Source: an uncultured Candidatus Saccharibacteria bacterium
Lineage (GTDB): Bacteria; Patescibacteriota; Doudnabacteria; UBA920
Assembly: GCA_964453265.1 (NCBI GenBank)
Contig: CAYVNU010000001.1
Location: forward strand, 52,022 to 104,275
DNA: 52,254 nucleotides
Reading direction: 5' to 3'
A program made the position numbers and the translations under genes. Below, in pieces: positions 12,737 to 51,654 of the stretch (within the stretch, counting starts at the first letter, position 1; each line of letters starts with the position of its first letter). The notes under the pieces are model-generated. The model was not told the DNA's origin. It worked only from the letters and a program-made list of their open reading frames with translations, and ran no database searches.

Positions 12737-15700
12737 ATGCAAAATTCTGTCGCAAAGAAACTCTTTGCTGTAGGATCCGCGGTTGCAATGACCATGTCCT
12801 TGGCAGCTCCGTTGGTAGCACAAGCTGCTGCCCACACTGCCGGTACTAACGTTATTTCTTCAGACGGTACTGTTTGGATGATTACATCTAACAATACTCG
12901 CCGCGCCTACACTTCCGGCGGCGCTTTCTTGTCTTACGGTTTCAACTCGTTTGCAAACGTACAGACTGCTAACGCCGACGACTTAGCCTTGCCAGTTGAT
13001 GGCTTAGGCTTTATACCTCCTCAGGATGGTTCAATTATTTGTTCCGACAGAGGATCTGACAAAGGTACTTGCTACTTTATTACCAATGGTAAAAAAGCTG
13101 GCTTCGTATCTCAACAGGTTTTCACTGGTTTAGGCTTTAGTTTTACTAACGCTATGAACGGTGATGTTTCTTTCTTGGCATCTGATGCCAATATTGAAAA
13201 TACTACCGCCGCTTTAAAGACCGGCGCTATTACCTTCTTTACTTACAACGGTAATAAAACCTACTTCTTGGTAGGAGCTTCTAGTTTGTTAGGTATTCCT
13301 AGCAACGAAGTCTTTAACTCTTGGGGATATTCCTTCAAGAAAGCAGTACCAGCTAACGCTGCAACTCAGGCTTGGCCTGTTGCTGGCGTAATGGTTGCTC
13401 GCCAACTTGGACAATTGTCTCCTTCCTGGACTTCTACCCCTGGCAACCCGGCACCAGTGCCTGGAACTGTTAGTGTTAGCACAGCTCCTGGTTTAGCTCC
13501 TTCCGCCACTGTACCTAAGAGCGCAACTAACGTTCCGTTCTTAAAGTTTATGATTAGCAACAATGGCAGCAGCGCTGCTACTGTTGATCAGATAACTGTA
13601 CACAGAAGCGGAAGCGGTGCTACAACCGACTTCTCTAACGTTTACGTATACCAGGGTAACATGAGATTAACAACCGGTAGAACCATTAACAGCTCTACAA
13701 ATGATGCTGTATTCTCCGGTCTTAGCCTCAACATCCCTGCTATGTCTAGCGTTACCTTAGATGTATTAGGCAGCATTGCTTCCACTGCTTCAGCTGGAAA
13801 CGTACATGCTTTGTCTATTACTTCAGTTATGCTTGGTTCAACCCAGGCCACCGGCACTGCTATGGGCAATTACATGACCTTAGCTGGCGTAACCGGCGGT
13901 ACAGTTACCGTTACTAAGAACGGTACCATGGCTAACCCAAAAGTTGGTCAAACCAACGTAAGGGTTGCTGCTTTCCAATTAGCCGCTTCTTCTTCTGAAG
14001 ATTTGGTTGTAAAGCGCATTACTGTTTACCAGGCTGGTTCTACAGCCCGCGGTAACTTGTCTAACTTCAAATTAACTCAAGCTGGCAACACTCTTGCCAC
14101 TGTCGCTTCCTTAGACAACAAAGATCACGCCAACTTTGACGTAAACTTTGCTTTAGCTAAAGGCGATACAAAAGTATTTGAAGTTTGGGCCGATGTTTCT
14201 GGTTCTGCCAGAGCTGGTTCTACCGAAACTGTTAAGTTTTATATAGAAGAAACTGCCGACATCTACGCAGTTGGCCAGACCTATGGTTTTGGTTCAGCTG
14301 TTGATACCGGTACTTCTGGAACTTACGACGGTACTTCCTGTACTTCCTCCTCCGGCAATTGTTCTTACAGCTACATTGAAGGCGGTCAATTGACCATGAC
14401 CTTTAATGGTCCTGCTGCTAAAGACATTGCTAAGAATGGGAAAGCTGTTGAATTATTCAACTTTACTGTAGCTGCCCAAAATTCTTTGGAAATGCGCGGT
14501 ATTAAGTTTACCTTCAACAACGGTGGTAGCGGAACTGCAAACTTTAACGATGCAACAACTCCTAACTACACCAACATCAAGATTGTAGACACCACTACCG
14601 GTCAGGTAGTTTGGGGTCCTCAAGACTTATCCGGCACTGGTAGCGCAACCTCTCAGGACGTTACCTTTACCGAATACGTAAACTTTGCAGCAGGTACTTC
14701 CAAAACTTACAAAATGGTTGCTGACGTTGCTAACAACTCTGATGTTGCTGCCAACGACAAAATCGGTGTAACTATGGTTACCAGCTACTTAACTTCCAGC
14801 AAAGTTAAGAACATTGACAACAACACCTTCTTGTCTTCAACTGACATTGTTCCAACCTCTAGCTTGGTTGGTAACCAAATGACTGTTAAGACTGCTACTT
14901 TGGCCGTTGCTTTGTCTTCTACTCCGACTTCCAAGTCCTACGTAAAAGGCACTAGCATGGTTGATGCAGCCGGTATTGTGTTTACCGCTTCCACTGCAAA
15001 AGATGTAAAAGTTACCGACCTTACCTTAACTGGTATGATTGCTACTTCTACTTCCAGCACTTTGGCTGATGGTGTACAATCCAGCGTCAATGTATCTGAC
15101 GATATAGTAACTGTCGCTCTTTATGACGGCGCTACTCAAATCGGCCAGACAAAGTCTCCGGCTGTTACCACAGGTACAGTTACATTCAATAGCTTGAATT
15201 GGACTATTCCTGCCGGTTCCTCCAAGACTTTAACTGTTAAGATGAGCATCAGCTCTGCTGCTACTTCATCTGACAAAATTAAGTGGAAAGTAGCCGCTGG
15301 CGGCGTTACTGCTGTTGATATGGAAGGTAACTCAGTAGTTGATGCTACTGGTCTTACAACCACCATCCCAGCATCTGCTGTTAACGGTTCTACTTCTACT
15401 TCTTCCGGTACAACCATCACCATTTCCGGTGCTGGTACTGTTTCTGTAGCCACTTCTGGCAACAACGAACAGGATGTAACTGACGCTCGTGTCGTTACTG
15501 CCGGTGCTATGGGCGTTACTATGGGCAAAGTTAACTTTACTGCTTCTAACGAAGACTTAAAGTTAAACAAAGTCCGTATTAATGTTCAATCCGCAAGCTC
15601 CAGCGGTACTGGTTCAAATATCGGTGACGAAATTAACGCCTTGTACTTGTACGATGGCGCTACTAAAGTTGCCGGTCCAGTCAGCTTAACTCCTTCCGGT

Positions 15701-16555
15701 TCTACCGAAGGTTATGCTGATTTCACCAGTCTCGCTCCGGATTTTGTAGTTACCAAAGATAACACTAAGACTCTAACTGTTAAAGCCGACTTAAATACTA
15801 TTTCTGGCGGTGCTGACAGTGGTGCTCAGTTTAATATTGCTCTCGACGGCACTAACAACTTCGAAGTTCGCGGTGTAGTCGGCAATACTTTGTTAACTGC
15901 TCCTTCCAGCGGAACTTACGCAGGCAGCTTGTATGTCTTGCGCAAGTCTCAGCCTAGAGTTGCGGTTGTTGCGTTACCAAGCGGCACAAAATTGTCCACT
16001 GGTACCAATACATTATTCCGCTTCTCCATTACTGCTGTTGACGGTCCTGTTGCTGTAAAGCACATTACCTTCACCAGCTCCACCTCTACCGGCGTAACTT
16101 TGTCCAACCCGGCCATTGCTCGCCAAGGTGGCAGTAATATTACCGTAACCTCTGCCAGCACTTATAGCGCAGGCAGTGCAGCTTTCGATGTTACCTTTAA
16201 CTCTGAAGAGTTAATTGACACCGGCAGCTCGGTAACTTATGACTTTAAAGCCGATGCATCTTTGAGCGGCCAAACCAATTACTCAGTTAGTACCAGAATT
16301 GCTTCCAGCGACACCGCTGTAGTAACTGGTTACTTAACTTCAGCATTGGCTGCTGCTCAGCAAGTTACTGACGATGATGCAGCTCTTGGTGTCGGTAACG
16401 CCACCTCTGCTGCTTCAGCCGCCTATAACTTCATCTGGTCTGATAAGTCTGCTGTTCCTCACAATGACACTGTAGGTTCAGGCGGTTCACACGACTGGAC
16501 TAACGGTCTTGGCGTGAAGACCCTTCCGACTGACTCACAAGGTTTGTCCTTCTAA
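12737..16555 (+). CDS. large secreted cell-surface protein (S-layer-like) with N-terminal triple repeat and multiple beta-sandwich-like modules
   Basis: Signal peptide MQNSVAKKLFAVGSAVAMTMSLAAPLVAQA-AA. 1272 aa, rich in Thr/Ser/Ala/Gly/Val and almost Cys-free. Modules of about 110-130 aa recur. Strong preference for AAC/GAC/TAC/TTC/GGT/GCT/ACT codons, unlike the neighbouring genes. GGAG lies 13 nt upstream of the ATG. Confidence 0.7.
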   Translation: MQNSVAKKLFAVGSAVAMTMSLAAPLVAQAAAHTAGTNVISSDGTVWMITSNNTRRAYTSGGAFLSYGFNSFANVQTANADDLALPVDGLGFIPPQDGSIICSDRGSDKGTCYFITNGKKAGFVSQQVFTGLGFSFTNAMNGDVSFLASDANIENTTAALKTGAITFFTYNGNKTYFLVGASSLLGIPSNEVFNSWGYSFKKAVPANAATQAWPVAGVMVARQLGQLSPSWTSTPGNPAPVPGTVSVSTAPGLAPSATVPKSATNVPFLKFMISNNGSSAATVDQITVHRSGSGATTDFSNVYVYQGNMRLTTGRTINSSTNDAVFSGLSLNIPAMSSVTLDVLGSIASTASAGNVHALSITSVMLGSTQATGTAMGNYMTLAGVTGGTVTVTKNGTMANPKVGQTNVRVAAFQLAASSSEDLVVKRITVYQAGSTARGNLSNFKLTQAGNTLATVASLDNKDHANFDVNFALAKGDTKVFEVWADVSGSARAGSTETVKFYIEETADIYAVGQTYGFGSAVDTGTSGTYDGTSCTSSSGNCSYSYIEGGQLTMTFNGPAAKDIAKNGKAVELFNFTVAAQNSLEMRGIKFTFNNGGSGTANFNDATTPNYTNIKIVDTTTGQVVWGPQDLSGTGSATSQDVTFTEYVNFAAGTSKTYKMVADVANNSDVAANDKIGVTMVTSYLTSSKVKNIDNNTFLSSTDIVPTSSLVGNQMTVKTATLAVALSSTPTSKSYVKGTSMVDAAGIVFTASTAKDVKVTDLTLTGMIATSTSSTLADGVQSSVNVSDDIVTVALYDGATQIGQTKSPAVTTGTVTFNSLNWTIPAGSSKTLTVKMSISSAATSSDKIKWKVAAGGVTAVDMEGNSVVDATGLTTTIPASAVNGSTSTSSGTTITISGAGTVSVATSGNNEQDVTDARVVTAGAMGVTMGKVNFTASNEDLKLNKVRINVQSASSSGTGSNIGDEINALYLYDGATKVAGPVSLTPSGSTEGYADFTSLAPDFVVTKDNTKTLTVKADLNTISGGADSGAQFNIALDGTNNFEVRGVVGNTLLTAPSSGTYAGSLYVLRKSQPRVAVVALPSGTKLSTGTNTLFRFSITAVDGPVAVKHITFTSSTSTGVTLSNPAIARQGGSNITVTSASTYSAGSAAFDVTFNSEELIDTGSSVTYDFKADASLSGQTNYSVSTRIASSDTAVVTGYLTSALAAAQQVTDDDAALGVGNATSAASAAYNFIWSDKSAVPHNDTVGSGGSHDWTNGLGVKTLPTDSQGLSF

Positions 16556-16611
16556 CTTAGCTTTTAGCTAACGTAAGAAAGCCCGCTTTAGGCCTTGGAA
16601 AAATAAAGCAA

Positions 16612-16641
16612 CCCCCTTGCCTTTATAGGCAAGGGGGTTTT
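16612..16641 (+). terminator. strong rho-independent terminator after the surface-protein gene
   Basis: cccccttgcc-tttata-ggcaaggggg followed by tttt. Confidence 0.85.
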
Positions 16642-16672: not shown

Positions 16673-17683
16673 ATGATTAGACTTTTGGTTTATAAGAAAT
16701 ATTTATTTATTGGTTTTGGCGGTCTCATTGTAGGCTTAGTTTTAGGCTATTTTTTTACTAGTAGGTATTTTGGCAGGACAGGTAAAGACTTGTATAGTTT
16801 TGCTATTAGAGAGCAGGCAAATAACTATAAATTAATTAGTCCGCTTTTGGCATTTGATGACGGTAAGGAATTTTATGAATTTTTACCCCTAAAGCAAAAA
16901 GTCGGGGAGGTAATAGAACAATTAAAAAAGGAAAATAAAGTCTCAGACGTGGGATTTTATTTTAGAGAAGGCAGCCATTGGGTGGGTTTAAACGAAAATA
17001 AAAAATTTACTCCGGCGAGTTTAATGAAAGTGCCTTTAATGATAGCTTATTTTAAATTGGCTGAAACTGATCCGGGAATTTTGCAAAAAAAATATTTATA
17101 TGATGGCAAGAATGATTTTAATGCCATAGAAAACAGAAAATCTGTAAATGTAATTAAGACTGGTCAGTGGTATAGCGTAGATGAATTAATTAAACATATG
17201 GTGGAAAATTCCGATAATAACGCAACAGCTATTTTGCAGGACAAAATTGATTATCAAGCTTTTAAAGAAGTATATAGCGATTTGGGAATGGAATTACCGT
17301 CTGATGATGCTACGAAGGATATAGACTATCTTTCCCCGAAACAATATTCTTTGTTTTTAAGAATACTTCGTAACGCTACATATTTAAATAAGGAATACTC
17401 TGAGAGAGCTATGGAATACTTAACGCAGACAGATTTTCAGCAGGGCATTGTCAGCTCTCTGCCAAAAAATATTATTGTCGCTCATAAGTTCGGGGAAAAT
17501 TATTATAAAAATTCAGATGGCCAAGCATTTTATGAGTTCCATGATTGTGGAATTATTTTATACCCCAATACCCCTTACTTATTATGTTTAATGACAAAAG
17601 CAGAAAAACAGGATAATTTACAGGAAGCTGTTGAAAAAATATCAGGCGTTGTTTTTAATCAAGTTATAAATAATTATAAATAA
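16673..17683 (+). CDS. membrane-anchored serine hydrolase, class A beta-lactamase/PBP-like
   Basis: N-terminal TM helix. SxxK (ASLMK), SDN (ENSDNNA) and a KTG-like HKFGE motif occur in the expected order. Confidence 0.65.
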   Translation: MIRLLVYKKYLFIGFGGLIVGLVLGYFFTSRYFGRTGKDLYSFAIREQANNYKLISPLLAFDDGKEFYEFLPLKQKVGEVIEQLKKENKVSDVGFYFREGSHWVGLNENKKFTPASLMKVPLMIAYFKLAETDPGILQKKYLYDGKNDFNAIENRKSVNVIKTGQWYSVDELIKHMVENSDNNATAILQDKIDYQAFKEVYSDLGMELPSDDATKDIDYLSPKQYSLFLRILRNATYLNKEYSERAMEYLTQTDFQQGIVSSLPKNIIVAHKFGENYYKNSDGQAFYEFHDCGIILYPNTPYLLCLMTKAEKQDNLQEAVEKISGVVFNQVINNYK

Positions 17684-17687: not shown

Positions 17688-18266
17688 ATGAGCAAAAAAA
17701 AGATTTTAATTTTAGGTTTATTGGTAGTTATTTTGGTTGCAGGTTTTGTTTTAATAGCCTGGCCTAAATACAAAAAATATTCGGAAGAAAAAAAAGCCCA
17801 ACAACAAGTTGTTGATGATCTTAAAGCACATAATCCTCAGCTGTATGGCAAAATCAGCAAGGCCATGCAAGAGAATTTAGATAAACTTAAGAAGAATCCT
17901 AAAGATTTTGAAGCACTTAGAGATTTAGCAGCACAGTACCAAACTTTGTTATTAATTGACAAAGCTGAAGAGACATACAAAAAGGCATTAGAAATTTCTC
18001 CTGACAGCGGTCTTATTTGGAATAATTTAGCGGTTTTATATGAACGGTCGGAGAATTGGTCAAAAGCGAAGGAGGCGTATTTAAAAATAATTAGTTTAGA
18101 CCCTAAAACTTACTCGGCTTATATTAGTTTAGCGCAAATGTATTTAAATAATCATGAAGGCAATAAAGAAGATGCCGTAAAACTGCTTCAACAGGGTATA
18201 CTAAACACCGGCAGCAAAACTTTAAAAGACGCTTTAGACAGGTTTAATAAGCAGGGGAGTTTGTAA
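17688..18266 (+). CDS. membrane-anchored TPR repeat protein
   Basis: N-terminal TM helix followed by TPR-like repeats (ALEISPDSGLIWNNLAVLYERSENWSKAKEAYLKIISLDP). Confidence 0.7.
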   Translation: MSKKKILILGLLVVILVAGFVLIAWPKYKKYSEEKKAQQQVVDDLKAHNPQLYGKISKAMQENLDKLKKNPKDFEALRDLAAQYQTLLLIDKAEETYKKALEISPDSGLIWNNLAVLYERSENWSKAKEAYLKIISLDPKTYSAYISLAQMYLNNHEGNKEDAVKLLQQGILNTGSKTLKDALDRFNKQGSL

Positions 18267-18267: not shown

Positions 18268-20508
18268 ATGAAAAATTCGAATCAAACGCAGCCAAATTAT
18301 AAATCTGGCGGGGTTTTATTCCAGATGTTTTTTGTTTTGGTTGGTCTTTCGGTTTTAGTGCCACTGTTAACTTTTAAGAGTTTGTTGTATCCGTTTGTTA
18401 CTGGAAAAACTTTTTTGTTTAGAATACTTATTGAAGCTGCTTTTCCTTTATATGTTTATTTTCTTTCAAAAGAAAAGAAACTAAGGCCAAGTTTAAAAGA
18501 TTATTTAAATTTTAGCCTTTTAGTTTTTCTATTTTTAAGTTTAATATCAACAGTTTTTGGCTTAAATGCTGGTAAGAGCATGTGGGGGAATTTTGAAAGA
18601 ATGGGCGGTTTTTTTACCCTCATCCATTATTTTGCGTTATACTTTTATTTGCTTCTAATTGTTCGTCAAAATCAAAAGTATTTTGATTTATTTTTTAAAT
18701 TTTTAGTTTTTGTAAGTTTTGCAGTTTCACTCAATGCAATTTCTTCTAAGTTTGGCGGACCTTCATTAGTTTTTGATTTGTGGCTGGAGGGTGGGCGTGT
18801 ATCATCGACTTTAGGTAATCCGATTTATCTGGGTAGTTTTTTAATTTTGCCAATGGCCTTAGGATTGGTGTACATGGAAAGAGCGACAAATTTTAAAATT
18901 AAATTGCTTTATGCGGTTAGCGTGTTTTTTATGCTTTGGGCGATTTTTTTAAGCGCGACTCGCGGAGCGTTATTGGGAGTATTTGTCGGTCTTGTTGTGG
19001 GGATTTTCATTTTTTTATTTTTTGGCAAAAAGAATTTGGCAAAAAGAATTATTTTGCCTGGCGCTATTATTTTTTTATTAGCAATTGCTAGCTTGTTCTT
19101 TTTTAAAAACAATTTACCCGAGACTTTCGTGCTTAGGCGTGCTTTGGAATTTAACGATCAGAATACGCAATCTAGGTTGCTGCAATGGAAATTGGTTTTG
19201 CACGGATTTAAAGAGCATTTTTTACTTGGCACCGGACCTGAAAATTATAATATCCTCGCTAATAAACATTATGAGCCGAAACAATACAGCTTAGATAAAA
19301 GCTGGTTTGATAAACCTCATAATTACTTTTTGGAGATTTTAGCCACCCAAGGGATTTTGGGAATTATTTCTTATTTGGCAGTGATGGTATTGGCATTTTG
19401 GTCATTATTTCAAGCTTTTAAATCTCAGTATTTGAGTTTATTTAGTTTTGCCGTTCTTGTTTCCGGCTTTGTCGCTTATCAGGCCCAGAATTTTTTTGTA
19501 TTCGAAACTATTTGCGCAAGCATAGTTTTTTATGCTTATTTAGCTTTTATGCATAGTCAGAATTTTGAAAGCGGCAACGCACCAACATCTGCGAAGAAAA
19601 CTTTTTCTTATGGCAATATCGTACTTGCTATTTTTGCGATAATTGCTTTTTATTTTATATACGCATTCAATATTTTGCCATGGAAAATGGCCAAGTTGCT
19701 TAATTCCGGATTGACTGCTTATGCAAAACTAAGTCCACCAAATTATGATTTGGCTAAAACTTTGTTTGACCGGGCTGATGGAATGAATCTAGGTTTTGAT
19801 ACCACTGAATTATTTTATAAATATTCAGATATGGCTTTGGCAGCCGCACAAAGCAGCGGGGAAGTAAAACAGGAATTTGTTAAAGGGGTTTTATCTGACG
19901 GTGTTCATATTGGCCAAAAAGCCATTTTAGAAAACCCAACTAATCCTGTTAATTTATATTATTTAGCCACTTTAAAATATTTTTCTGAATTAGCTAGTAA
20001 AGGGCAAAATTTTCAAGAAACAATTGATGGTTTGAATAAGGCTTATAACTTAGCACCAAAAAGACCGGAAATTTACTATATGTTGGTTGCTGCGAATGTA
20101 GCTGCAAAAAATTATAGTCAGGCGGAAAATTTCGCCAGGGAATATTATAAAAATTATCCTTGGCTTAGCCAGGGCGTTTGGCAAATGGCCTGGGTAAATT
20201 ATAAAAAAAATAATCTACCGGAAGCAGGTAAATATGCTTTGGATGCTGTTAGTAAAGGCTATAAAGTAGAAACATTTTCAGAAGGCAAATTGTTTGCGGA
20301 TTATTTTTATTCTATAAACCAGCCTGAACAAGTTGTAAAAATTTATGAGCAGCTGGTTAAGACTGATGAGCATAATTTGCAGGTTTATTTAGGTTTGACC
20401 GAGGCATATTATTTAAATAGGCAGTTTAATGAAGCAAAAAATTTAGCCAATGAAATTATTACAGCGGACCCGTCTCAAAAAATGAGTTTAGAAAAATATT
20501 TAAAATAA
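18268..20508 (+). CDS. O-antigen ligase-like (Wzy_C) polytopic membrane protein with C-terminal TPR domain
   Basis: GNPIYLGSFLILP, SATRGALLG and RLLQWKLVLHGFKEHFLLGTGPENY match the Wzy_C/O-antigen-ligase pattern, followed by C-terminal TPR repeats. Paralog of 22291-24549. Confidence 0.75.
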   Translation: MKNSNQTQPNYKSGGVLFQMFFVLVGLSVLVPLLTFKSLLYPFVTGKTFLFRILIEAAFPLYVYFLSKEKKLRPSLKDYLNFSLLVFLFLSLISTVFGLNAGKSMWGNFERMGGFFTLIHYFALYFYLLLIVRQNQKYFDLFFKFLVFVSFAVSLNAISSKFGGPSLVFDLWLEGGRVSSTLGNPIYLGSFLILPMALGLVYMERATNFKIKLLYAVSVFFMLWAIFLSATRGALLGVFVGLVVGIFIFLFFGKKNLAKRIILPGAIIFLLAIASLFFFKNNLPETFVLRRALEFNDQNTQSRLLQWKLVLHGFKEHFLLGTGPENYNILANKHYEPKQYSLDKSWFDKPHNYFLEILATQGILGIISYLAVMVLAFWSLFQAFKSQYLSLFSFAVLVSGFVAYQAQNFFVFETICASIVFYAYLAFMHSQNFESGNAPTSAKKTFSYGNIVLAIFAIIAFYFIYAFNILPWKMAKLLNSGLTAYAKLSPPNYDLAKTLFDRADGMNLGFDTTELFYKYSDMALAAAQSSGEVKQEFVKGVLSDGVHIGQKAILENPTNPVNLYYLATLKYFSELASKGQNFQETIDGLNKAYNLAPKRPEIYYMLVAANVAAKNYSQAENFAREYYKNYPWLSQGVWQMAWVNYKKNNLPEAGKYALDAVSKGYKVETFSEGKLFADYFYSINQPEQVVKIYEQLVKTDEHNLQVYLGLTEAYYLNRQFNEAKNLANEIITADPSQKMSLEKYLK

Positions 20509-38212: not shown

Positions 38213-38217
38213 TTTTT

Positions 38218-41201: not shown

Positions 41202-41227
41202 ATTATAAATAAATTAATTTTACGCTT

Positions 41228-42406: not shown

Positions 42407-42407
42407 T

Positions 42408-44204: not shown

Positions 44205-44205
44205 T

Positions 44206-45090
44206 ATGAATATATTGCTTACCGGCGGTTTTGGGTTCATTGGCAGGCATTTGTCTTCGCACTTAGCCTCAAAATTTACTGTTTTTGCTCCGGCGCATTC
44301 GGAACTGGATGTTTTAGATTCGGCAAAAGTTTTGTCGTATGCAAAAGCTAATTCCATTGATGCAGTTGTGCACGCGGCAAATGTAGGGGGCAGCAGAAAA
44401 GATGAAAATAATTCTGAAGTATACTCCAAAAATCTACAAATGTTTTTAAACATAGCTGCGCTGGAACCTTTGGTTGGAAAAATAATTTTTTACGGTACCG
44501 GAGCTGAGTACGATAAATCAGCCAGCATTAGTATGGTTTTGGAATCAGATTTTGGAAAAAATTTGCCTAAGGACGAATACGGCAAAGCTAAGTTCGCATG
44601 TTCTCAGGAAATTGCTAAAATGCATAAAGCTATAAATTTGCGTTGCTTCGGCGTGTATGGAATTTATGAAGATTACGAACTTCGGTTTATTTCTTACGCC
44701 ATACTGCGGGCTTTGCTTGGACTGCCCATTATTTTAAAACAAGATACTCTATTTGAATATACCTATGTAAAAGATGTTTGCCGTTTAACCGAATATTTTT
44801 TAGAAAATGATGCTAAAGAAAAGTTTTATAATTTAGGCAGCGGCCGCCCGGTTAGTTTACTTTTTTTAGCCAAAATAGTTCAAAGCTTAACTAAAAGCTC
44901 TTTGCCTATAACTGTTTTAAAACCGGGTATGGGAAAAGAATATACCTGCAATTCGGATAGATTGAAGTTGGAAGTTAAAAATTTTATTTTTACCCCTTAT
45001 GAACAGGCGATACAAGAAATGATTGATTGGTATAAAGCGAATTTGAATTTATTAAATTTAGAAAAAATTAAAGCCGAAATGCCTGTATAA
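44206..45090 (+). CDS. NAD(P)-dependent sugar epimerase/reductase (extended SDR)
   Basis: MNILLTGGFGFIGRHL and YGKAKFACS (YxxxK). Confidence 0.7.
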   Translation: MNILLTGGFGFIGRHLSSHLASKFTVFAPAHSELDVLDSAKVLSYAKANSIDAVVHAANVGGSRKDENNSEVYSKNLQMFLNIAALEPLVGKIIFYGTGAEYDKSASISMVLESDFGKNLPKDEYGKAKFACSQEIAKMHKAINLRCFGVYGIYEDYELRFISYAILRALLGLPIILKQDTLFEYTYVKDVCRLTEYFLENDAKEKFYNLGSGRPVSLLFLAKIVQSLTKSSLPITVLKPGMGKEYTCNSDRLKLEVKNFIFTPYEQAIQEMIDWYKANLNLLNLEKIKAEMPV

Positions 45091-45132
45091 GGTAATTTGG
45101 TTTAAACATTAATTTTTGTTAAAATAACAAAT

Positions 45133-45285
45133 ATGCATTACATATGTACAGGTGGTTGCAAGGGTGTTAGTCAAGTGCCCGGCACCTGCCAAGCCGCAAG
45201 CTGCCCGTTAGTTGGACACGACCTTGAGCCGTGCGACTGTAAAGACGGAAAGCATTATGGCAAATTAGATCACCAGGAAAAGTAA
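45133..45285 (+). CDS. small Cys/His-rich protein (50 aa), not in the ORF track
   Basis: ATG 45133 to TAA 45285 reads MHYICTGGCKGVSQVPGTCQAASCPLVGHDLEPCDCKDGKHYGKLDHQEK, with 7 Cys and 5 His. It is locally GC-rich compared with its AT-rich flanks. Confidence 0.5.
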   Translation: MHYICTGGCKGVSQVPGTCQAASCPLVGHDLEPCDCKDGKHYGKLDHQEK

Positions 45286-45346
45286 TTAGGTTTTAAGGTG
45301 ATGTTAATTTGCAGAGCATCTAAGCAGGGTGCGTTCTTAATTTTGT

Positions 45347-46261
45347 ATGAGCGGTCAAAATCACAAAAAAACTATTTTGCTAACCGGTGCTACCGGATAT
45401 TTGGGTAGTAATCTGTTAAAAAAGCTGTTAGCAGAAGGCGAGTTTAATATAGTAGTCTTAAAAAGGTCTTTTTCCAATACTTTTAGAATTACGGATTGGT
45501 TAAGCAAGGTTCAAATTTACGACGCGGATAAAATTAATTTTGAGAGCATATTCAAGCTGCAGCAAATTGATATAATTTTACACTGCGCTACGGATTATGG
45601 CAGAAAGAACACGCCTATGCTTCAAACCATTGAAGCTAATTTACTTTTGCCTGTGCGTTTGCTGGAATTAGGCAAGCAGTACGGGGTTAAAGCTTTTATT
45701 AATACCGATACAATTTTAGACAAACGGATAAATGCTTATTCACTTTCCAAAAAACAGTTTAAAGAGTGGTTGTTTTTTTCCAAAGATTCGCTTGCCTGTA
45801 TTAATGCTTCGCTAGAACATTTTTTTGGCCCGGGCGATGACAAGACTAAATTTGCTTCTTTTATTATAAATGCGTTTTTAGTAAAACAACCGGCAATCGA
45901 TTTAACCTTAGGCGAGCAAAAAAGGGATTTTATATATATAGATGATTGCGTAAGAGCTTTCTTGGCTATTATTAGCCATGCGGCAAATTTAAATTCCGGC
46001 TTTTATGAGTTTGAAATTGGTACTAACCAGCCAATTAGTATAAAAGAATTTGTTTTGCTAATAAAAAAATTGACGGCAAGTTCTGAAACTATTTTAAATT
46101 TTGGCGCTTTGCCTTACCGGCAAAATGAAGTTATGGAATGTAAAACCGATACCGGTCCGATAAAAAAGTTAGGCTGGCAGGCAAAATATTCTTTAGAGGA
46201 AGGCTTATTAAAAACAATCACGGAAGAAAGAAAATTAATTAGCTTGACAACACAAAAATGA
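45347..46261 (+). CDS. NAD(P)-dependent sugar reductase/epimerase (extended SDR; CDP-sugar 4-reductase-like)
   Basis: ILLTGATGYLGSNLLKKLL and YSLSKKQFK (YxxxK). Confidence 0.65.
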   Translation: MSGQNHKKTILLTGATGYLGSNLLKKLLAEGEFNIVVLKRSFSNTFRITDWLSKVQIYDADKINFESIFKLQQIDIILHCATDYGRKNTPMLQTIEANLLLPVRLLELGKQYGVKAFINTDTILDKRINAYSLSKKQFKEWLFFSKDSLACINASLEHFFGPGDDKTKFASFIINAFLVKQPAIDLTLGEQKRDFIYIDDCVRAFLAIISHAANLNSGFYEFEIGTNQPISIKEFVLLIKKLTASSETILNFGALPYRQNEVMECKTDTGPIKKLGWQAKYSLEEGLLKTITEERKLISLTTQK

Positions 46262-46335
46262 ATCCCGTTAGAGTTAAAGTGATATTTAGTAATACTATTT
46301 TAGTTCTTCTTTCAGCTAAAAAATAACTATTATTT

Positions 46336-46436
46336 CCGTCGTAACTTTCGAGCCTGCCTGCCAGTACCTGTCTACCGATAGGCGGAGGCAGGAAGTGCGC
46401 CCGACCTGTCCTACGAAGTCTTGGCGAAGGGGGAAT
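46336..46436. repeat. intergenic copy of the GC-rich repeat family
   Basis: 46401-46429 ccgacctgtcctacgaagtcttggcgaag matches 5938-5966 at 27/29. Stem CCTGCCT (46353-46359) pairs with AGGCAGG (46386-46392). Confidence 0.65.
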
Positions 46437-46761
46437 CAATCTATATTTTTACTAGATCGCCCTTACCTTATATGCTATTTAAAGCTTATAATGACAATCT
46501 ATTCAATGCATTATATCGACTTGTTATAAATTTCTAAATAAGTTAATTTATAAACACGTTGTTACAAGGACTTATGAAAGCATTTTAGGCAATATTATGA
46601 AAAATTATTTTAATTAACTAAAGGTCGTGATTCGTTTATATTATTTTTATCGCGAAGCATTTTAAACAAATATGAGACTTTTGCCCGAAAACGCTACATA
46701 AAAGCGGTATGGGTAAACGCTGAATAAAGAATTGTTTAAAAAGTTTCTTAACTCTAACGGG

Positions 46762-47784
46762 ATGAAATATTTAATTACCGGGGGTGCGGGTTTTTTAGGT
46801 TCTAATTTGGCTAAAGAAGTATTAGAGAGGGGAGATGAATTGGCCATTTTTGACAACTTGTCGCGTTTGGGCGCGCAAGAGAATTTAGATTGGTTAAAAG
46901 GATTTGGTCAGTTTTTATTTACGCAAGGCAATGTGGCTAATGCGGCTGAAATTGAATCGGTTATTAAAACACAAAAACCGGATGTTATTTTTCACTTAGC
47001 CGGTCAAGTGGCAATGACAACTTCAATTTCAGACCCGAGAAAAGATTTTGAAACCAACGCGCTTGGCACTTTTAATGTTTTAAACGCTGTTCGGCAACAC
47101 TGCTTGGGTTGCGCGGTTTTGTATTCTTCAACCAACAAAGTTTATGGGGATTTAGAATATTTAAAATACAATGAAAGACCGACTCGATATGAATTGGCAG
47201 ACTTTTCGGCCGGACTTTCGGAAAATATTTCCTTAGAATTTGCTTCTCCATACGGCTGCTCAAAAGGCGCCGCTGACCAGTATTGTTTAGATTTTCATAA
47301 AACTTTTGGTTTGAAAACCGCGGTCTTTAGGCATTCTTCTATGTACGGAGGTAGGCAATTTTCCAGCTATGACCAAGGTTGGCTGGGTTGGTTTTGCGAG
47401 CAAGCAGTTTTAACCAAACAAGGCAAGTTAGAAAAACCTTTTACTATTTCCGGCAACGGCAAACAGGTACGGGATGTGCTGCACGCGGAAGATATGGTTA
47501 ATTTATATTTTTTAGCGGCCAAAGAAATTAATTCTATTGCCGGCCAGGTATTTAATATTGGCGGCGGGATGCAAAATAGTTTATCTTTGCTGGAATTGTT
47601 AAATTTTTTGGAAAAAGAATTAGATGTTAAACTTAACTATGAGCAATTGCCGCCGCGCGCTAGCGACCAAAAGGTTTTTGTGGCAGATATAGCAAAAATT
47701 CACAAGTTAATCGGCTGGCAACCAAAGGTAAGTAAAGAAGCGGGGATAAAAAAGATGTTAGAGTGGGTGAAAAGCAAAAACTAG
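46762..47784 (+). CDS. tyv: CDP-paratose (tyvelose) 2-epimerase family protein
   Basis: [108 protein letters not shown] and [10 protein letters not shown] closely track Salmonella Tyv/RfbE. ATG 46762 is preferred over the TTG at 46732. Confidence 0.88.
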
Positions 47785-47819: not shown

Positions 47820-48524
47820 ATGAATGTAAATAAAAAGTTAACCGTATTTATCCCGGCCTATAAAGAAGCGGAAAATTTAAAAGTCCTTTTGCCAAGGCTG
47901 GTTCAGACTCTTTCGGAGGTAGAACCGGATTATGAAGTTTTAGTGGTGGATACCATGCAGCCCATGGACGCGGCCAAAGAAGTTTGTAAAAACACGGCTG
48001 GCAATATTGTTTATTTAAACAGAACAGGTGGTAATAATTTTGGCGACGCGGTTAGAACCGGAATTTATGCGGCAGCCGGGCAATTTTTTATTGCAATGGA
48101 CGGCGACGGCTCCCACGCGCCGGAATTTATAAAAAACCTTTACGCGGAAAAAGACGCAAACGATGTAGTTATTGCTTCTCGCTACGTAGAGGGCGGGGAT
48201 ACGGAGAATCCTAAAGTTCTAATTTTAATGAGTAGGATTGTCAACATTATTTATTCGCTTGTTTTGAATTTAAACTGCAAAGATGTTTCTAACAGTTTTA
48301 AACTTTACAAAACCGCTGCTTTAAAAAGTTTAAATTTGAAATGCGATAACTTTGATATTGTGGAAGAAATTTTATTTAAGCTAAAAAAAGCCAATAAAAA
48401 TTTAAAAATAAAAGAATTGCCGTTTACTTTTAAAACTAGAATGTTCGGAGAGACTAAACGGAATTTGCTGGTTTTTATAGTTACTTATATTTTTACATTG
48501 TTAAAACTTAGGTTTAGCAAATAA
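47820..48524 (+). CDS. family 2 glycosyltransferase, polyprenyl-phosphate sugar synthase (Dpm1/GtrB-like)
   Basis: LTVFIPAYKEAENL, LVVDT and AMDGDGSHAPEFI. Confidence 0.8.
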   Translation: MNVNKKLTVFIPAYKEAENLKVLLPRLVQTLSEVEPDYEVLVVDTMQPMDAAKEVCKNTAGNIVYLNRTGGNNFGDAVRTGIYAAAGQFFIAMDGDGSHAPEFIKNLYAEKDANDVVIASRYVEGGDTENPKVLILMSRIVNIIYSLVLNLNCKDVSNSFKLYKTAALKSLNLKCDNFDIVEEILFKLKKANKNLKIKELPFTFKTRMFGETKRNLLVFIVTYIFTLLKLRFSK

Positions 48525-48531: not shown

Positions 48532-51500
48532 ATGAAAAGAATTTTGAGTTTATGGCGTTTTTTTACGGGCAATAAATTTTTTCGTTTTTGTTTAGTCGGC
48601 TCTTCGGGGATGGTTAGCAATCTTGCGGTTTTTTTTATTTTTAGAAAATATTTTCATGCCGACATAAACACTTCAGCTATTGCGGCCTTTACTTTTGCAG
48701 TAACGCAGAATTATTATTTTAATCAAAAATGGACGTTTAAGCATTCAGCCGGTAGCGACCTGAATTTTACCGGCTATGTTAAGTATGTAGGCGTAAATAT
48801 ATTTAGCTTAAGCGTAAATTTGCTGGCAGTTAATTTTATTGTCCGTAGCGGAGTGTTTAGGCTGCCGGAATTAGTTGCCCAGGCTGTGGGAATAGTCTTA
48901 GGTTTTTTAATTACCTATTTTGGTTCTGCTTTGCTGGTCTTTGCAAAAAAAGACCAGCAAGCCGCGCTTTTGGAGAGTAAAGAAGAGGTTTTAGGAATTG
49001 AGTTTACTAAAAAAAAATTTAAAACAGCCTTAGTAGCTGAACTCAAAAGCAGTTTTAAATACTGGCTTTTTATTTTTCTAGCGGCGTTTTTGGTGATTTA
49101 TTTAGGTCAACTTGCCGCGGTTATTGGTAGTAAGAGTATTTTAAAGCCGGTAACTATTTGGGCTACAACCGAGAACGGACAAGTTCCGCCTTCTTTGGAA
49201 AGATTTATGCAGTTAGCTAGAGCTGGTAATTATACTCTGCTAAAGCCGTCCTTAAACGCGGGCAAAGAATGGACAGTTGAGGGCGTATTTTTTAAAAAAG
49301 TTTTGCTAGCTATGTCTATAGAGGATTTGGCTAAGTTAAAAAATGTCCGAGTAGAAATTGGAGAAAAAACTTTTATTTACAATAAAGAGCAGTTTTTAAA
49401 AACTTGGCAGGAAGTAAGCCCGGTAATTTTAACCGGCAATTTGTCCGGCGCGGAAACCGGCAATTATAAATTTTTTCAATCGCCCGAGGACATGCGTTTT
49501 GCTGTTTCGCGCATTCCGATTTATAAAAGTTTTTTTAGCAGTATTATTAATTGGGCAGGGGACAGCCTGTTGTTTAGAAACCCGCTTCTAAACAGTTTTG
49601 GACCGGCTTTTTTAATGCTATTTTGGTTTATTTTTATTCGTATTTGTTTGGGAGTTATGCCGCCTCAAACAATCAACGAAGCTTTGGATCAGAGGCGCCG
49701 CGGTTATATAATTTTTTCTGGGGTTGTTTATGCGGCCATAGCCGGTTTGATTTTAATAAATTTTTGTTTGTCGATTTTTTACAAGCCCAATATTGCAAGT
49801 TTGCTTAGCCAGGCAGAGAGCAGTTTTGTGCCATATATTTTTAAATCTATTAGACCCAAACCTCTGGAAAGATTGCAGTTTATGCTGAGCGCGGCTGTTT
49901 TGCCTTTTTTGCTTTTTTTCCTTCATGGCTGGTTAAAAAAAGTAAAAATAATTTCTTTGGAATTTTGGTACAAGTTATGCGCGCTGCTTAACATTTTTTT
50001 ATTAGGCTCATTAATTTATTTAGGCTTGTCGGTTAGCGGTTTTTTCTTTATTTCGGATAGCGTCTTTTCAGGGGAGTTGTTAAAATATTTTTACGCGTTT
50101 TTAGTTTTTCCGCTGTGTTTTATTTTCTTTTTAACCCGGCCTTTACCGGAAAAAATTTTAAAGCTTCTTAAGCTTTTTGGCATATTAGCGGTGTTTATTG
50201 CCTTTGCACTAAGTATTGTAAATGTGTTTGACGGCTATATGCCGGTTGATTTAGATCCAGTGCTTTTTCCAGTGGTTTCTGTTTTGGCGGGCAAAAGTTT
50301 GCTGGCGCCTATTACCAGTTTTTACGGGCTGTATCCTTTTTTTATTGCGCCGATTTTTTATGTAATTGGTTTTTCTGTCTTAAAGTTTTCTTTTGTCATG
50401 GCCGCTTTAATGCTTATAAGTTTTGCCGCTTTATACCGAGCTTTGGGTTTGCTTATAAAAAATAAAACAATTTATTTATTGGGCTTTTTGTCTTTAGTAT
50501 TTTATACGGTCTTGGCAACGCGCGTTTTGCCGGAATATTATTTCCAGTATTGGCCACTGCGTTTTGTTTTTCCCTGTTTAGGTTTTTTATGTGTTGCCGC
50601 GTATTTAAAATATGAAAATAAATTATATTATTTTTTGAGTTTTATAGTCTGCGCTTTGGCGGTGTTGTGGAATTTGGAAACCGGAGCGGTTTTGTTTATA
50701 TCTTTTTTAGTCAGTCTCTTTTTTTCCCACCTGGCTAATTGGCAGGGTATACAGAAATTTATAGCAAAGAATTTTCAGCATTTGGTTGTGAGTAGTTTAG
50801 CTTTAGGTTTGGTATTTGGACTGTTTTCGGTTATAACTAAAATTCAGAGTAGTCACTGGCCGGATTTTACTTTGCTTTTCCGCTATCAGAAATTATTTGT
50901 GGCCGGCTATTTAAATATTGCTCTGGTGCCGCCTCCGCATACTTGGGTGGTGGTGGCTGTTATTTATTTACTAGGGCTTTTGTCGGCAATTGCGGCTTTA
51001 CAAAAACAGGCTGTTAATTTTACGGACAAAGTAGTTTTCTTTTTATCTATTTTAGGTGTGGGCCTGTTTGCGTACTATGAAGGCCAATCCAGCGATATAA
51101 CTTTATTCCGCACTTCCTACCCGGCAATTGTTATTGCGATAATTTTTGCAGACAGGCTGTGGGAGGAAATAAAAAGTTTTAAAGGCAGGCTTTATGGTAA
51201 TTTTTTCGCTTTTGCTTTTATTATGTTTGTTTTAATTTCCGTACCGTTTAGTTTGCTGTATAATTTAGCTACTTATTATAGTTTTGGTAAATTGGCTATA
51301 AAAAATATCAGGCTTGAAACTTCAGAAATTTTAAGTGATGCTGAATTTATAAAAACTCAAACAAAGCCCAAAGAAGCGGTGTTTATTTTAGCCAGTCCTT
51401 TGCAGGCCGAACTTTACGCAGAAAGTAATACCGTGCCAAATTTAAACATTCCTTCGGTGGCTGATATTGTTTTTCCATCTGACTTGGAAATTTTAATTAA

Positions 51501-51654
51501 TTTTTTGCAAACCAATAAAACTGTAAAAGTTTTTGTAAAACAGCCGCTTGAGTCATACGACAAATTCGACATAAAAATAAGACAAATACTGAGCGAAAAA
51601 TACACACAAGTTTCAAAAAGTAAAAATGGTATGGTTTTTTATATCTTAAAATAA
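48532..51654 (+). CDS. GtrA-like domain fused to a very large polytopic membrane protein (probable GT-C glycosyltransferase)
   Basis: The N-terminal 130 aa (FFRFCLVGSSGMVSNLAVFFIF...QNYYFNQKWTFK) form a GtrA domain. They are followed by about 900 aa with many TM helices and a soluble C-terminal domain. Confidence 0.65.
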   Translation: MKRILSLWRFFTGNKFFRFCLVGSSGMVSNLAVFFIFRKYFHADINTSAIAAFTFAVTQNYYFNQKWTFKHSAGSDLNFTGYVKYVGVNIFSLSVNLLAVNFIVRSGVFRLPELVAQAVGIVLGFLITYFGSALLVFAKKDQQAALLESKEEVLGIEFTKKKFKTALVAELKSSFKYWLFIFLAAFLVIYLGQLAAVIGSKSILKPVTIWATTENGQVPPSLERFMQLARAGNYTLLKPSLNAGKEWTVEGVFFKKVLLAMSIEDLAKLKNVRVEIGEKTFIYNKEQFLKTWQEVSPVILTGNLSGAETGNYKFFQSPEDMRFAVSRIPIYKSFFSSIINWAGDSLLFRNPLLNSFGPAFLMLFWFIFIRICLGVMPPQTINEALDQRRRGYIIFSGVVYAAIAGLILINFCLSIFYKPNIASLLSQAESSFVPYIFKSIRPKPLERLQFMLSAAVLPFLLFFLHGWLKKVKIISLEFWYKLCALLNIFLLGSLIYLGLSVSGFFFISDSVFSGELLKYFYAFLVFPLCFIFFLTRPLPEKILKLLKLFGILAVFIAFALSIVNVFDGYMPVDLDPVLFPVVSVLAGKSLLAPITSFYGLYPFFIAPIFYVIGFSVLKFSFVMAALMLISFAALYRALGLLIKNKTIYLLGFLSLVFYTVLATRVLPEYYFQYWPLRFVFPCLGFLCVAAYLKYENKLYYFLSFIVCALAVLWNLETGAVLFISFLVSLFFSHLANWQGIQKFIAKNFQHLVVSSLALGLVFGLFSVITKIQSSHWPDFTLLFRYQKLFVAGYLNIALVPPPHTWVVVAVIYLLGLLSAIAALQKQAVNFTDKVVFFLSILGVGLFAYYEGQSSDITLFRTSYPAIVIAIIFADRLWEEIKSFKGRLYGNFFAFAFIMFVLISVPFSLLYNLATYYSFGKLAIKNIRLETSEILSDAEFIKTQTKPKEAVFILASPLQAELYAESNTVPNLNIPSVADIVFPSDLEILINFLQTNKTVKVFVKQPLESYDKFDIKIRQILSEKYTQVSKSKNGMVFYILK

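Follow-up and report, generated by a model that had tools for sequence, protein, structure and literature searches.

The locus and its surface-protein gene

The window, the whole 52,254-nucleotide stretch of DNA analysed here, derives from a Doudnabacteria-like CPR bacterium, as judged from the relatives of its proteins, which are CPR/Patescibacteria and mostly Ca. Doudnabacteria. This agrees with the CPR-type host supposed in a first-pass annotation, which had described a Thr/Ser-rich secreted protein and about 35 kb of same-strand glycosylation genes at 12737-51654. Every ORF named in that annotation is present where it had been placed. The surface-protein gene, here termed SURF, lies among the following elements.

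12129-12157, plus strand: predicted sigma-70-like promoter (TTGACA-17-TATAAT, 12/12 consensus match), ahead of the leader
12158-12736, plus strand: putative SURF leader, ~580 nt, with blocks conserved in the relatives L001, L005 and L008
12737-16555, plus strand: SURF, a 1272-aa secreted surface protein with a putative anchoring N-domain, an Ig-like array and a conserved tail
16610-16639, no strand assigned: 13-bp, G+C-rich, terminator-like hairpin directly 3′ of the SURF stop codon

Because the hairpin follows right behind the stop codon, SURF is probably monocistronic. The perfect promoter match, the conserved leader, the strong hairpin and an Nc of 41.0, the lowest among the long genes (a few short genes are lower), together suggest that SURF is highly expressed and its product abundant, as far as gene features can indicate. 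Rfam and tandem-repeat scans of the window returned tRNA-Pro and trivial repeats only.

The SURF protein begins with a predicted Sec signal peptide (residues 1-30, cleaved after residue 30 between A-Q-A and A), and the mature form is acidic (pI 5.2) with a mass of 127 kDa. Serine and threonine make up 25.1% of SURF, compared with 10.8% in the window's other 40 proteins, which bears out its earlier description as Thr/Ser-rich and secreted. The N-domain (residues 31-232, nt 12827-13432) consists of three tandem repeats of ~55-70 aa and is followed by a Pro/Ser/Thr linker (~233-243), an array of Ig-like beta-sandwich domains and a conserved C-terminal tail (residues ~1229-1272) with the pattern F[IV]WSDxS...H...DWxN[GD]..V..LP[TS]. 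A fold search with residues 1-620 matched generic Ig-like arrays only (integrin legs, PrgB, adhesins) and thus does not discriminate between an S-layer protein and an adhesin. The motifs D[ST][AILVMT], N-x-S/T and S/T-P and runs of S/T are not enriched over shuffles in SURF and five orthologues, and such counts are uninformative either way about SURF glycosylation. The signal peptide, acidic pI, only four Cys residues, high Ser+Thr content, N-domain and strong promoter, leader and terminator are all S-layer traits, and they make SURF a candidate major cell-surface protein that may serve in an S-layer.

The N-domain matches nothing in Pfam or the PDB in single-sequence or profile searches. The same triple repeat occurs in 848 protein clusters, at the N- or C-terminus, and we suggest that it is a previously undescribed portable anchoring domain. 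Like the anchors of the SLH-SCWP and CWB2-PSII systems, it is repeated and common to hundreds of secreted proteins at either terminus, but it differs from them in that its sequence resembles nothing in Pfam or the PDB; moreover, CPR are reported to have lost SLH and CsaB. This distribution is typical of wall-binding modules and favours an alternative in which the neighbouring genes make a cell-wall or lipid-linked glycopolymer, the Wzy_C proteins attach it, by ligation or polymerisation, to an acceptor other than protein, and SURF and other N-domain proteins bind it non-covalently. There are models for such an arrangement: SLH binds pyruvylated SCWP, CWB2 binds PSII, Caulobacter RsaA binds O-antigen, and both Firmicutes and Caulobacter offer well-known cases of S-layer genes that adjoin genes for an anchor polymer. 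We nevertheless regard this alternative as unlikely in view of the ligases and their linkage to SURF, described below.

Two Wzy_C proteins with TPR domains

Six genes, including two that encode Wzy_C membrane proteins, directly follow SURF.

16673-17683, plus strand: membrane-anchored beta-lactamase/PBP-fold protein (Beta-lactamase2), recurring in the cassette of relatives
17688-18266, plus strand: N-terminally anchored 192-aa TPR protein, a WsaA analogue by position
18268-20508, plus strand: Wzy_C ligase 1, with 13 TM helices, a C-terminal TPR domain (residues 493-745) and catalytic R232/R303/H351
20579-22105, plus strand: membrane-anchored MFP/HlyD-YknX-like adaptor
22291-24549, plus strand: Wzy_C ligase 2 with TPR, a paralogue long diverged from ligase 1 (33% identity) and with the same invariant triad
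24576-25703, minus strand: GT4 glycosyltransferase, a conserved partner whose gene converges on the last Wzy_C gene

Ligases 1 and 2 score 93.0 and 80.7 bits against Pfam PF04932 (Wzy_C; gathering cutoff 31.7), as the first-pass annotation had proposed. All 31 family members compared, both window paralogues among them, keep R232/R303/H351 (ligase 1 numbering) without exception. In the alignment these residues fall on R191/R265/H313 of the Cupriavidus metallidurans WaaL sequence (PDB 7TPG), which we take to be the catalytic residues of that enzyme, and match PglL R224/R298/H349 by spacing. In E. coli WaaL (R215/R288/H338) and PglL, the conserved Arg/Arg/His residues lie on the periplasmic face.

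The AF2 model of ligase 1 (pLDDT 89.7) combines a TPR domain with 13 TM helices and contains the 12-TM WaaL-like fold with its large external TM9-TM10 loop. Its best membrane-protein match in Foldseek is WaaL 7tpg_B (TM-score on the target 0.64, 459 columns). Consistently, 7TPG is the only hit left (hmmsearch E=7e-12) when the PDB is searched with a profile of the Wzy_C membrane domain alone, a query chosen because the full Wzy_C-TPR alignment was swamped by TPR proteins. From the 13th helix and the positively charged loops 69-78, 253-260 and 435-448 (positive-inside rule), the TPR domain of ligase 1 is predicted to face outward, which together with the WsaA-like TPR protein suggests a protein partner rather than a polymer acceptor. 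In addition, the known wall-polymer-to-peptidoglycan ligases are LCP proteins and not Wzy_C enzymes.

Kinship with WaaL and PglL therefore holds for the triad and for the WaaL-like fold of the modelled copy, but it does not extend to the PglL_A (PF15864) and Wzy_C_2 marker domains, neither of which matches the Wzy_C proteins even at E<=10. TfpO and TfpM likewise lack both domains. NCBIfam gave weak sub-threshold matches only, such as IctB and, at 42.9 bits where the cutoff is 188, TIGR03097 ('putative O-glycosylation ligase, exosortase A-associated'), which do not discriminate between ligase types, and protein-directed and lipid- or polymer-directed Wzy_C enzymes are not separable by sequence.

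Sugar and glycan genes

The remainder of the island comprises a conserved proximal sugar block (25808-29654) with a predicted role in GDP-L-fucose supply, a glycan assembly block, a CDP-hexose branch and a terminal gene pair, and a further pair lies upstream of SURF.

25808-26836, plus strand: Gmd (NCBIfam 523 bits, above cutoff)
26839-27627, plus strand: Exo_endo_phos (EEP) protein
27643-28710, plus strand: Glyco_trans_1_2
28710-29654, plus strand: Fcl-like (best NCBIfam match, yet below cutoff)
29702-39090, plus strand: glycan assembly block with GT2, GT-D, GT10 fucosyltransferase, ORF 32530, methyltransferase (start 33746), STELLO-like GT, ORF 35551, Wzx flippase (36680-38212, Polysacc_synt_3) and ORF 38218
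39155-47784, plus strand: CDP-hexose branch with glucose-1-phosphate cytidylyltransferase, CDP-glucose 4,6-dehydratase, class I/II aminotransferase, ALS-like ThDP enzyme and three SDR epimerase/reductases
47820-48524, plus strand: polyprenyl-phosphate-sugar-synthase-like GT2
48532-51654, plus strand: 1040-aa protein with an N-terminal GtrA domain and a polytopic membrane part
1900-4598, plus strand, outside 12737-51654: 622-aa polytopic membrane protein and a GT2, a pair conserved upstream in relatives

The flippase and the methyltransferase are as first annotated, while other parts of that description change. Instead of at least nine glycosyltransferases, seven pass Pfam thresholds (GT4, Glyco_trans_1_2, two GT2, GT-D, GT10 and STELLO-like), and ORFs 32530, 35551 and 38218 match no family. 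The GDP-fucose and CDP-hexose pathways stand as predictions, with Gmd above its cutoff but Fcl, the cytidylyltransferase and the dehydratase recognised by best NCBIfam matches below their cutoffs, and no enzymes specific to a 3,6-dideoxyhexose, the sugar class previously suggested, were found. Most genes lie on the plus strand as described, but the GT4 gene does not, and among the glycosylation genes the range also holds the beta-lactamase-fold, MFP/HlyD-like and Exo_endo_phos proteins.

At the distal end, the GT2 and GtrA domains of the supposed polyprenyl-phosphate-sugar synthase and GtrA-GT-C fusion are present, but the part called GT-C matches nothing in Pfam or the PDB. A homologue, P0385, fuses GT2, GtrA and membrane domain in one chain, which supports functional coupling of the two genes, and the pair is a candidate Gtr-type extracytoplasmic single-sugar transferase. 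It resembles GtrA/GtrB/GtrC, CsbB/GtcA/YfhO and PgfS/PgfM in placing such a GT2 beside GtrA and a large polytopic domain, and differs in that this domain has no GT-C family match. The 622-aa upstream protein also matches no family in Pfam or the PDB, and its pair adjoins a SURF paralogue in L012 and L014.

A priming phosphoglycosyltransferase was sought with PF02397 (Bac_transf-type) in six-frame ORFs of the window and with PF02397 and PF00953 among its annotated ORFs, with no match; the islands of L032 and L094-L101 do carry a primer. An origin of the island by horizontal transfer was considered and rejected, since its G+C content and skew match those of the flanks. No lpx, kds or waa genes occur in the window or in the examined flanks of related loci. 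The host probably makes no LPS, a view that draws on the CPR literature: CPR are placed in a monoderm clade without SLH and CsaB, and one sequenced CPR genome has no lipid A genes (lpxC and kdsA are absent).

Linkage of SURF and Wzy_C in related loci

The linkage expected between the surface-protein gene and the island is borne out in relatives. SURF is followed by Wzy_C in the same orientation in 66 of 82 related loci (80%) belonging to two SURF clades, and 16 loci lack the pairing. Wzy_C lies downstream on the same strand in 28 of 36 Doudnabacteria-type SURF loci, and in a second clade, which carries a PG_binding_1 anchor, it is paired with SURF in 38 of 46 loci at a median gap of 110 bp. 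The pair persists despite different upstream synteny (L093), occurs in Uhrbacteria (L004), and is kept in L094 with PG_binding_1 in place of the N-domain and with PglF/DegT/Bac_transf-like sugar genes. It is thus seen with two kinds of anchor, in three or more upstream contexts and next to differing sets of sugar genes. In contrast, Wzy_C is missing from ~28 loci of paralogs whose likeness to SURF is confined to the anchor domain.

These patterns bear on the glycopolymer alternative in both directions. The recurrence of GT4, Gmd, Fcl, Glyco_trans_1_2 and EEP genes in many Doudnabacteria loci is what a common anchor polymer would predict, and distant Wzy_C-TPR homologues (25-28% identity) occur in pure glycan clusters without an adjoining surface-protein gene. 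However, a polymer bound by the N-domain does not explain why the pairing survives a peptidoglycan-binding anchor and other sugar genes, nor why other N-domain proteins never have Wzy_C nearby.

It is also conceivable that SURF and the island have no functional tie. An ordinary capsule, EPS or glycan locus might by chance adjoin an abundant surface gene, or the ligases might O-glycosylate many proteins in general, pilins for instance, with no special place for SURF. The Wzy_C-TPR family is indeed widespread in CPR and sometimes unlinked from SURF, which has its own promoter and terminator. Against this, co-location within 10 kb would arise by chance in only 1-2% of cases (a rough estimate that assumes 1-3 copies in a genome of ~1 Mb), and the breadth of the pairing and the short second-clade gap make an incidental association very improbable.

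A different question is whether the two Wzy_C paralogues share labour, one being a Wzy-type polymerase of repeat units and the other a ligase to protein or another acceptor. The positional copies fall in mostly separate old clades, the second copy in the PG_binding_1 clade is often ~450 aa and hence too short for a TPR domain, and apart from Wzx and the GtrA protein the island encodes nothing else that is polytopic and Wzy-like. However, both window paralogues retain the ligase-type triad and TPR, classical Wzy polymerases are not known to be defined by that triad, and a single Wzy_C copy suffices in many loci, so we consider this arrangement improbable.

Only the proximal ~17 kb, from SURF to Fcl, is conserved together with SURF. 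The tie between the surface gene and the ~35 kb island described earlier holds for this part, and the distal ~22 kb is assumed to belong to the same system.

Discussion

Our analysis favours, as on balance the probable reading, en bloc O-glycosylation of SURF by the adjoining Wzy_C machinery, and we propose that the conserved cassette joins a surface-protein gene to a dedicated glycan-transfer machine. As the SURF gene is almost always followed by WaaL/PglL-type ligases and sugar genes, its product is probably sugar-coated like some Gram-positive S-layers. The GT4, Glyco_trans_1_2, GT2, GT-D, GT10 and STELLO-like enzymes and the methyltransferase would build an oligosaccharide on undecaprenyl pyrophosphate at the cytoplasmic side from GDP-fucose (Gmd/Fcl) and a CDP-glucose-derived sugar, and Wzx would move it to the outer membrane face. 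One or both ligases, helped by the small separate TPR protein, could then transfer the glycan en bloc to Ser/Thr/Tyr residues while SURF is leaving the Sec translocon, with the TPR domains recognising protein, possibly the conserved SURF tail. With a polyprenyl-phosphate sugar as donor, the GT2 and GtrA-membrane pair may attach individual sugars on the outer side of the membrane, and the triple-repeat N-domain would hold SURF on the wall. The roles of the MFP and beta-lactamase-fold proteins are left unexplained by the glycosylation reading.

The closest counterpart is the Geobacillus slg cluster (WsaB/WsfB), in which sgsE lies near wsaA, encoding a 168-aa TPR protein, and wsaB, encoding a predicted Wzy_C O-OTase. 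The likeness drawn earlier to this system extends to gene order, as the succession of surface gene, small TPR protein and Wzy_C ligase mirrors sgsE-wsaA-wsaB. Judged by gene order and domains, both loci combine Wzy_C and an associated or fused TPR near a surface gene with glycan genes, and they share a nearby monocistronic surface gene (Geobacillus-type S-layer genes are monocistronic), nucleotide-sugar, glycosyltransferase and methyltransferase genes in the same locus, and a monoderm host. WsfB and PglL also carry C-terminal TPR. The slg cluster differs in exporting by a Wzm/Wzt ABC transporter rather than Wzx, in using dTDP-rhamnose rather than the GDP-fucose and CDP-hexose predicted here, and in its SLH anchor in place of the triple repeat, whereas the island described here, known from genes alone, adds two TPR-fused paralogues, the MFP and the beta-lactamase-fold protein.

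O-OTase genes commonly adjoin the target gene, as for TfpO/PilO, TfpM, PglS and ComP-specific PglL, and the same-orientation adjacency found here would fit SURF as the substrate. The Wzy_C core with its Arg/Arg/His triad is shared with these Gram-negative enzymes, en bloc transfer from an Und-PP-glycan is proposed by analogy with them, and the varying sugar genes beside SURF and its ligase are what relaxed glycan specificity would predict. In contrast to them, PglL_A and Wzy_C_2 are absent here, the candidate acceptor is a 127-kDa Ig-array surface protein of a monoderm host and not a pilin, and the ligase has one more TM helix, the 13th, and a TPR domain of ~250 residues predicted to be external. 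WaaL, although no other match comes closer to the membrane domain in structure and sequence, has 12 TM helices, no TPR and a gene in a core-LPS locus, and its acceptor is lipid A-core, while CPR are reported without lipid A genes.

A bolder version, which we find possible but rather doubtful, is that SURF and related proteins form the main S-layer-type envelope protein that has long escaped identification in several CPR classes. The 13-TM Wzy_C-TPR proteins would then be a new radiation-wide class of protein O-OTase, with the external TPR and the WsaA-like helper recognising SURF, perhaps via the F[IV]WSDxS...DWxN tail, and the N-domain a new wall anchor replacing SLH in this monoderm radiation. 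Full-text literature searches on S-layers, glycosylation or O-antigen ligases in CPR/Patescibacteria returned no paper that describes a SURF-Wzy_C locus. Since the ligases stand beside very different sugar gene sets, they may accept a range of glycans, a property that glycoengineering could use.

S-layer-type protein O-glycosylation has so far been characterised mainly in Bacillales and Bacteroidota, and the literature still calls it unclear how the CPR cell envelope is composed. The SURF cassette names testable genes for this envelope: a candidate envelope protein, a putative portable anchoring domain and a candidate monoderm O-OTase class. Because CPR are ultra-small episymbionts that live by surface contact with their hosts, their envelope genes matter, and if SURF is indeed glycosylated, S-layer-type protein O-glycosylation would extend to a large uncultivated radiation.

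Gene content of the locus

The window holds 41 substantial ORFs, on the plus strand nearly throughout, and its G+C content is even (0.33-0.45), with peak values within 12737-16555 (+), the ORF of the 1272-aa secreted Ser/Thr-rich surface protein, hereafter SURF.

Genes downstream of SURF (strand noted where minus)
16673-17683: membrane-anchored beta-lactamase/PBP-fold protein
17688: anchored TPR protein, 192 aa
18268-20508: Wzy_C+TPR protein 1, 746 aa
20579-22105: membrane-anchored MFP/HlyD-like adaptor
22291-24549: Wzy_C+TPR protein 2, 752 aa
24576, minus strand: GT4
After the GT4: Gmd, Exo_endo_phos protein, Glyco_trans_1_2, Fcl-like protein
After the Fcl-like protein: GT2, GT-D, GT10 fucosyltransferase, methyltransferase, STELLO-like GT
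36680: Wzx
39155-47784: CDP-glucose branch (glucose-1-phosphate cytidylyltransferase, CDP-glucose 4,6-dehydratase, class I/II aminotransferase, ALS-like ThDP enzyme, three SDR enzymes)
47820: GT2 similar to polyprenyl-phosphate sugar synthases
48532: 1040-aa protein with an N-terminal GtrA domain, then ~20 more TM segments

The genes described in the first-pass annotation are borne out by the ORFs and families in the window, apart from some corrections. Seven glycosyltransferases, rather than nine, pass family thresholds, and three ORFs of the range are without a family. The polytopic part of the 1040-aa protein has no family match to support its earlier label of "GT-C", and no enzymes specific to the dideoxyhexose that had been proposed were identified among the window genes. 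A search of the window for a priming phosphoglycosyltransferase found none.

In the CDP-glucose branch, an aspartate-type (class I/II) aminotransferase stands alongside an acetolactate-synthase-like ThDP enzyme and the three SDRs, and the product may be an unusual sugar, possibly branched-chain (yersiniose-like) or an amino deoxyhexose. The MFP/HlyD-like adaptor has no ABC or RND partner close by. In related loci from genome and metagenome collections (L001, L002, L008, L015, L028, L093), such an adaptor and the beta-lactamase/PBP-fold gene are found repeatedly between the two Wzy_C genes or next to them, and in L002 a Peptidase_S8 bearing the SURF N-domain is inserted at this position. Upstream of SURF, a tRNA-Pro(TGG) at 11969-12042 separates the transaldolase gene from the SURF promoter region, and a small PD-(D/E)XK_3 nuclease-family ORF (PF13366; 10631-11047) lies within the sugar-phosphate-metabolism block, as it does in several relatives. 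Further upstream, at 1900-4598, a family-less 622-aa polytopic membrane protein and a GT2 precede the transketolase-glpX-aldolase-LOG-transaldolase block. This arrangement is conserved (L006, L008, L013, L019, L025, L028). In L012 and L014 the two genes adjoin a SURF paralogue, and they may constitute another pair for extracytoplasmic glycosylation.

The surface protein and its gene

SURF carries a classical Sec signal peptide (...PLVAQA|AAH) and has no family in Pfam or NCBIfam. Serine and threonine make up 25.1% of its residues, compared to 10.8% for the rest of the window's proteins; charged residues are few, there are four cysteines, and the mature form is 127 kDa with a pI of 5.2. A perfect TTGACA-17-TATAAT promoter (12129-12157) precedes a ~580-nt leader, several blocks of which are kept in L001, L005 and L008, including ATTGATTGTCTCAATTGAATAATCAAT ~30 nt 5′ of the start codon; the leader region (12129-12736) matches no Rfam family. 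A 13-bp G+C-rich hairpin (16610-16639) lies 3′ of the stop codon, and the codon bias is the strongest among the long genes (Nc 41.0). The promoter, conserved leader, hairpin and codon bias suggest that SURF is expressed strongly and as a unit of its own.

In an AF2 model covering residues 1-620 (mean pLDDT 77), a mixed alpha/beta N-domain (31-229; pLDDT 80-90) leads through a short, disordered Pro/Ser/Thr linker into beta-sandwich domains. Foldseek with this model returned only generic Ig-like arrays (integrin legs, PrgB and Gram-positive adhesins), which is neutral with respect to a lattice. The most conserved portion of SURF is the N-domain (residues 31-232), which consists of three degenerate repeats of ~55-70 aa each (hhalign pairs, P=7e-7, 4e-5 and 6e-3) and has no relatives in Pfam or the PDB. 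It is present in 848 clusters at 50% identity, 530 of them at E<=1e-10, in proteins of 177-2584 aa, where it either follows the signal peptide directly or forms the very C-terminus. In this distribution the N-domain behaves as a portable module for wall anchoring would, on the principle of SLH and CWB2, and it is a candidate new anchoring module of CPR bacteria that had not been described before. In another SURF clade, PG_binding_1 takes the place of the N-domain. Both clades share, regardless of anchor, a C-terminal tail of ~44 residues (nt 16421-16552; F[IV]WSDxS...H...DWxN[GD]..V..LP[TS]) that resembles no sortase signal and no known sorting signal. Speculatively, this tail might be bound by external TPR domains.

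The Wzy_C-TPR ligases

The two Wzy_C proteins are members of a uniform CPR family of ~740-aa proteins, in which R232, R303 and H351 are invariant across 31 sequences, both window paralogues included. The sole PDB match of the membrane-domain profile is the WaaL structure 7TPG (E=7e-12), and the three residues align with R191, R265 and H313 of its sequence, which we take to be the catalytic residues of that enzyme. By spacing, they also match R215/R288/H338 of E. coli WaaL and R224/R298/H349 of PglL. The AF2 model of Wzy_C+TPR protein 1 (pLDDT 89.7, pTM 0.87) places a TPR domain (493-745) after 13 TM helices, and its best membrane-protein match is again WaaL (7tpg_B; target TM-score 0.64). Topology was assigned by helix counting and the positive-inside rule, by which three loops rich in Lys/Arg (69-78, 253-260 and 435-448) are predicted to be cytoplasmic; this would place the catalytic loop and the TPR domain on the outer face. 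The marker domains PglL_A and Wzy_C_2 are absent from the window Wzy_C proteins, as they are from TfpO and TfpM.

In a neighbour-joining tree, first- and second-position Wzy_C copies fall in mostly separate clades, indicating that the duplication is old and that both copies were retained. Where SURF is anchored by PG_binding_1 (L095-L164, e.g. L113, L124, L127, L148), the second Wzy_C often measures just ~450 aa, with no room for a TPR domain, a hint that the two copies may share the work as polymerase and ligase or as two ligases. A split of polymerase and ligase between the two paralogues, which could be combined with either protein glycosylation or synthesis of a non-protein polymer, strikes us as improbable for the locus. 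In several distant CPR lineages (L004, L086, L088; Uhrbacteria and others), secA lies ~5-10 kb or less from a Wzy_C-TPR gene, which may reflect an old synteny of the ligase with the Sec machinery.

Conservation of the surface protein-ligase pair

Of 36 Doudnabacteria-type loci of SURF orthologues whose downstream sequence spans 4 kb or more, 28 have a Wzy_C gene on the same strand within 10 kb, and 14 have two copies. The usual companions in these loci are the small TPR gene, the MFP and/or beta-lactamase-fold gene, GT4 (minus strand), Gmd, Fcl, Glyco_trans_1_2 and the EEP gene. Paralogue ORFs sharing the N-domain only (n=31) have a Wzy_C nearby in three cases, all frameshifted orthologue fragments, and in none of the other ~28. 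The SURF-ligase module travels as one block: it occurs in a different upstream context at L093, and also in Uhrbacteria (L004). The second SURF clade (mostly with a PG_binding_1 anchor) was examined in 46 metagenome loci that extend 2.5 kb or more past the SURF gene; Wzy_C lies directly 3′ in 38 of them (median gap 110 bp), and the sugar genes differ (PglF-like, DegT, small Bac_transf). Over both sets the pair is present in 66 of 82 loci, a result in favour of the first-pass annotation, which had proposed a test of this linkage. Because it is kept while anchor and sugar genes change, SURF body and ligase are the constant unit, and the anchor domain and glycan genes are variable. Very distant Wzy_C-TPR homologues (25-28% identity) sit in glycan clusters with Bac_transf and Wzx and no adjoining surface-protein gene, so the pairing is widespread, not universal.

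Given these linkage statistics, it is unlikely that the two genes are neighbours by chance or that the ligases serve glycosylation in general and nothing more. The island might instead make a glycopolymer, carried by a non-protein acceptor, that the SURF N-domain would bind. Such a polymer would fit the conservation of the triple-repeat N-domain and of the proximal sugar genes; however, the SURF-Wzy_C pair persists where anchor and sugar genes have both been replaced, and other N-domain proteins occur without a ligase, and we regard this alternative as rather unlikely.

Discussion

The best-supported reading of the gene content, catalytic residues, predicted fold and conserved linkage documented here is slg-like O-glycosylation of SURF. 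That SURF is the acceptor and has an S-layer role, what the glycan is made of and what the TPR domains do are inferred; en bloc O-glycosylation of SURF itself we consider somewhat probable. An oligosaccharide would be assembled on Und-PP from GDP-fucose and a CDP-glucose-derived sugar, flipped across the membrane by Wzx, and transferred en bloc to SURF outside the membrane by one or both Wzy_C-TPR ligases, with the TPR modules possibly serving protein recognition. The GT2 and GtrA-membrane pair would add sugars from polyprenyl-phosphate donors; all three parts (GT2, GtrA and membrane domain) are fused in a homologue (P0385).

The closest precedent is Geobacillus stearothermophilus, where the monocistronic S-layer gene sgsE lies near wsaA, whose product is a TPR protein of 168 aa, and near the Wzy_C O-OTase gene wsaB. 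In P. alvei WsfB, TPR is fused to the O-OTase, and for TfpO, TfpM, PglS and many PglL homologues an O-OTase gene beside its target gene is the rule.

Homologues of SURF and Wzy_C-TPR are named from Ca. Doudnabacteria, Uhrbacteria and the "Patescibacteria group", and in a scan of genome collections nearly all matches were Doudnabacteria-type MAGs. No LPS or outer-membrane genes were found in the window or in the examined flanks of related loci. One CPR genome has been reported to lack lpxC and kdsA, with the CPR envelope termed "unclear", and CPR have been assigned to a clade of monoderms from which SLH/CsaB were lost.

Wzy_C enzymes that O-glycosylate S-layers are already known from Bacillales. 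Full-text searches of the CPR/Patescibacteria literature on S-layers, glycosylation or O-antigen ligases turned up no account of the SURF-ligase locus, and a "glycosylated S-layer" in CPR is raised only as speculation in one paper. What is new here is the lineage (CPR), a 13-TM TPR-fused ligase family that is often duplicated, the accompanying MFP and beta-lactamase-fold genes, the candidate anchoring domain of SURF, and a conserved surface-protein/ligase pair spanning a large uncultivated radiation.
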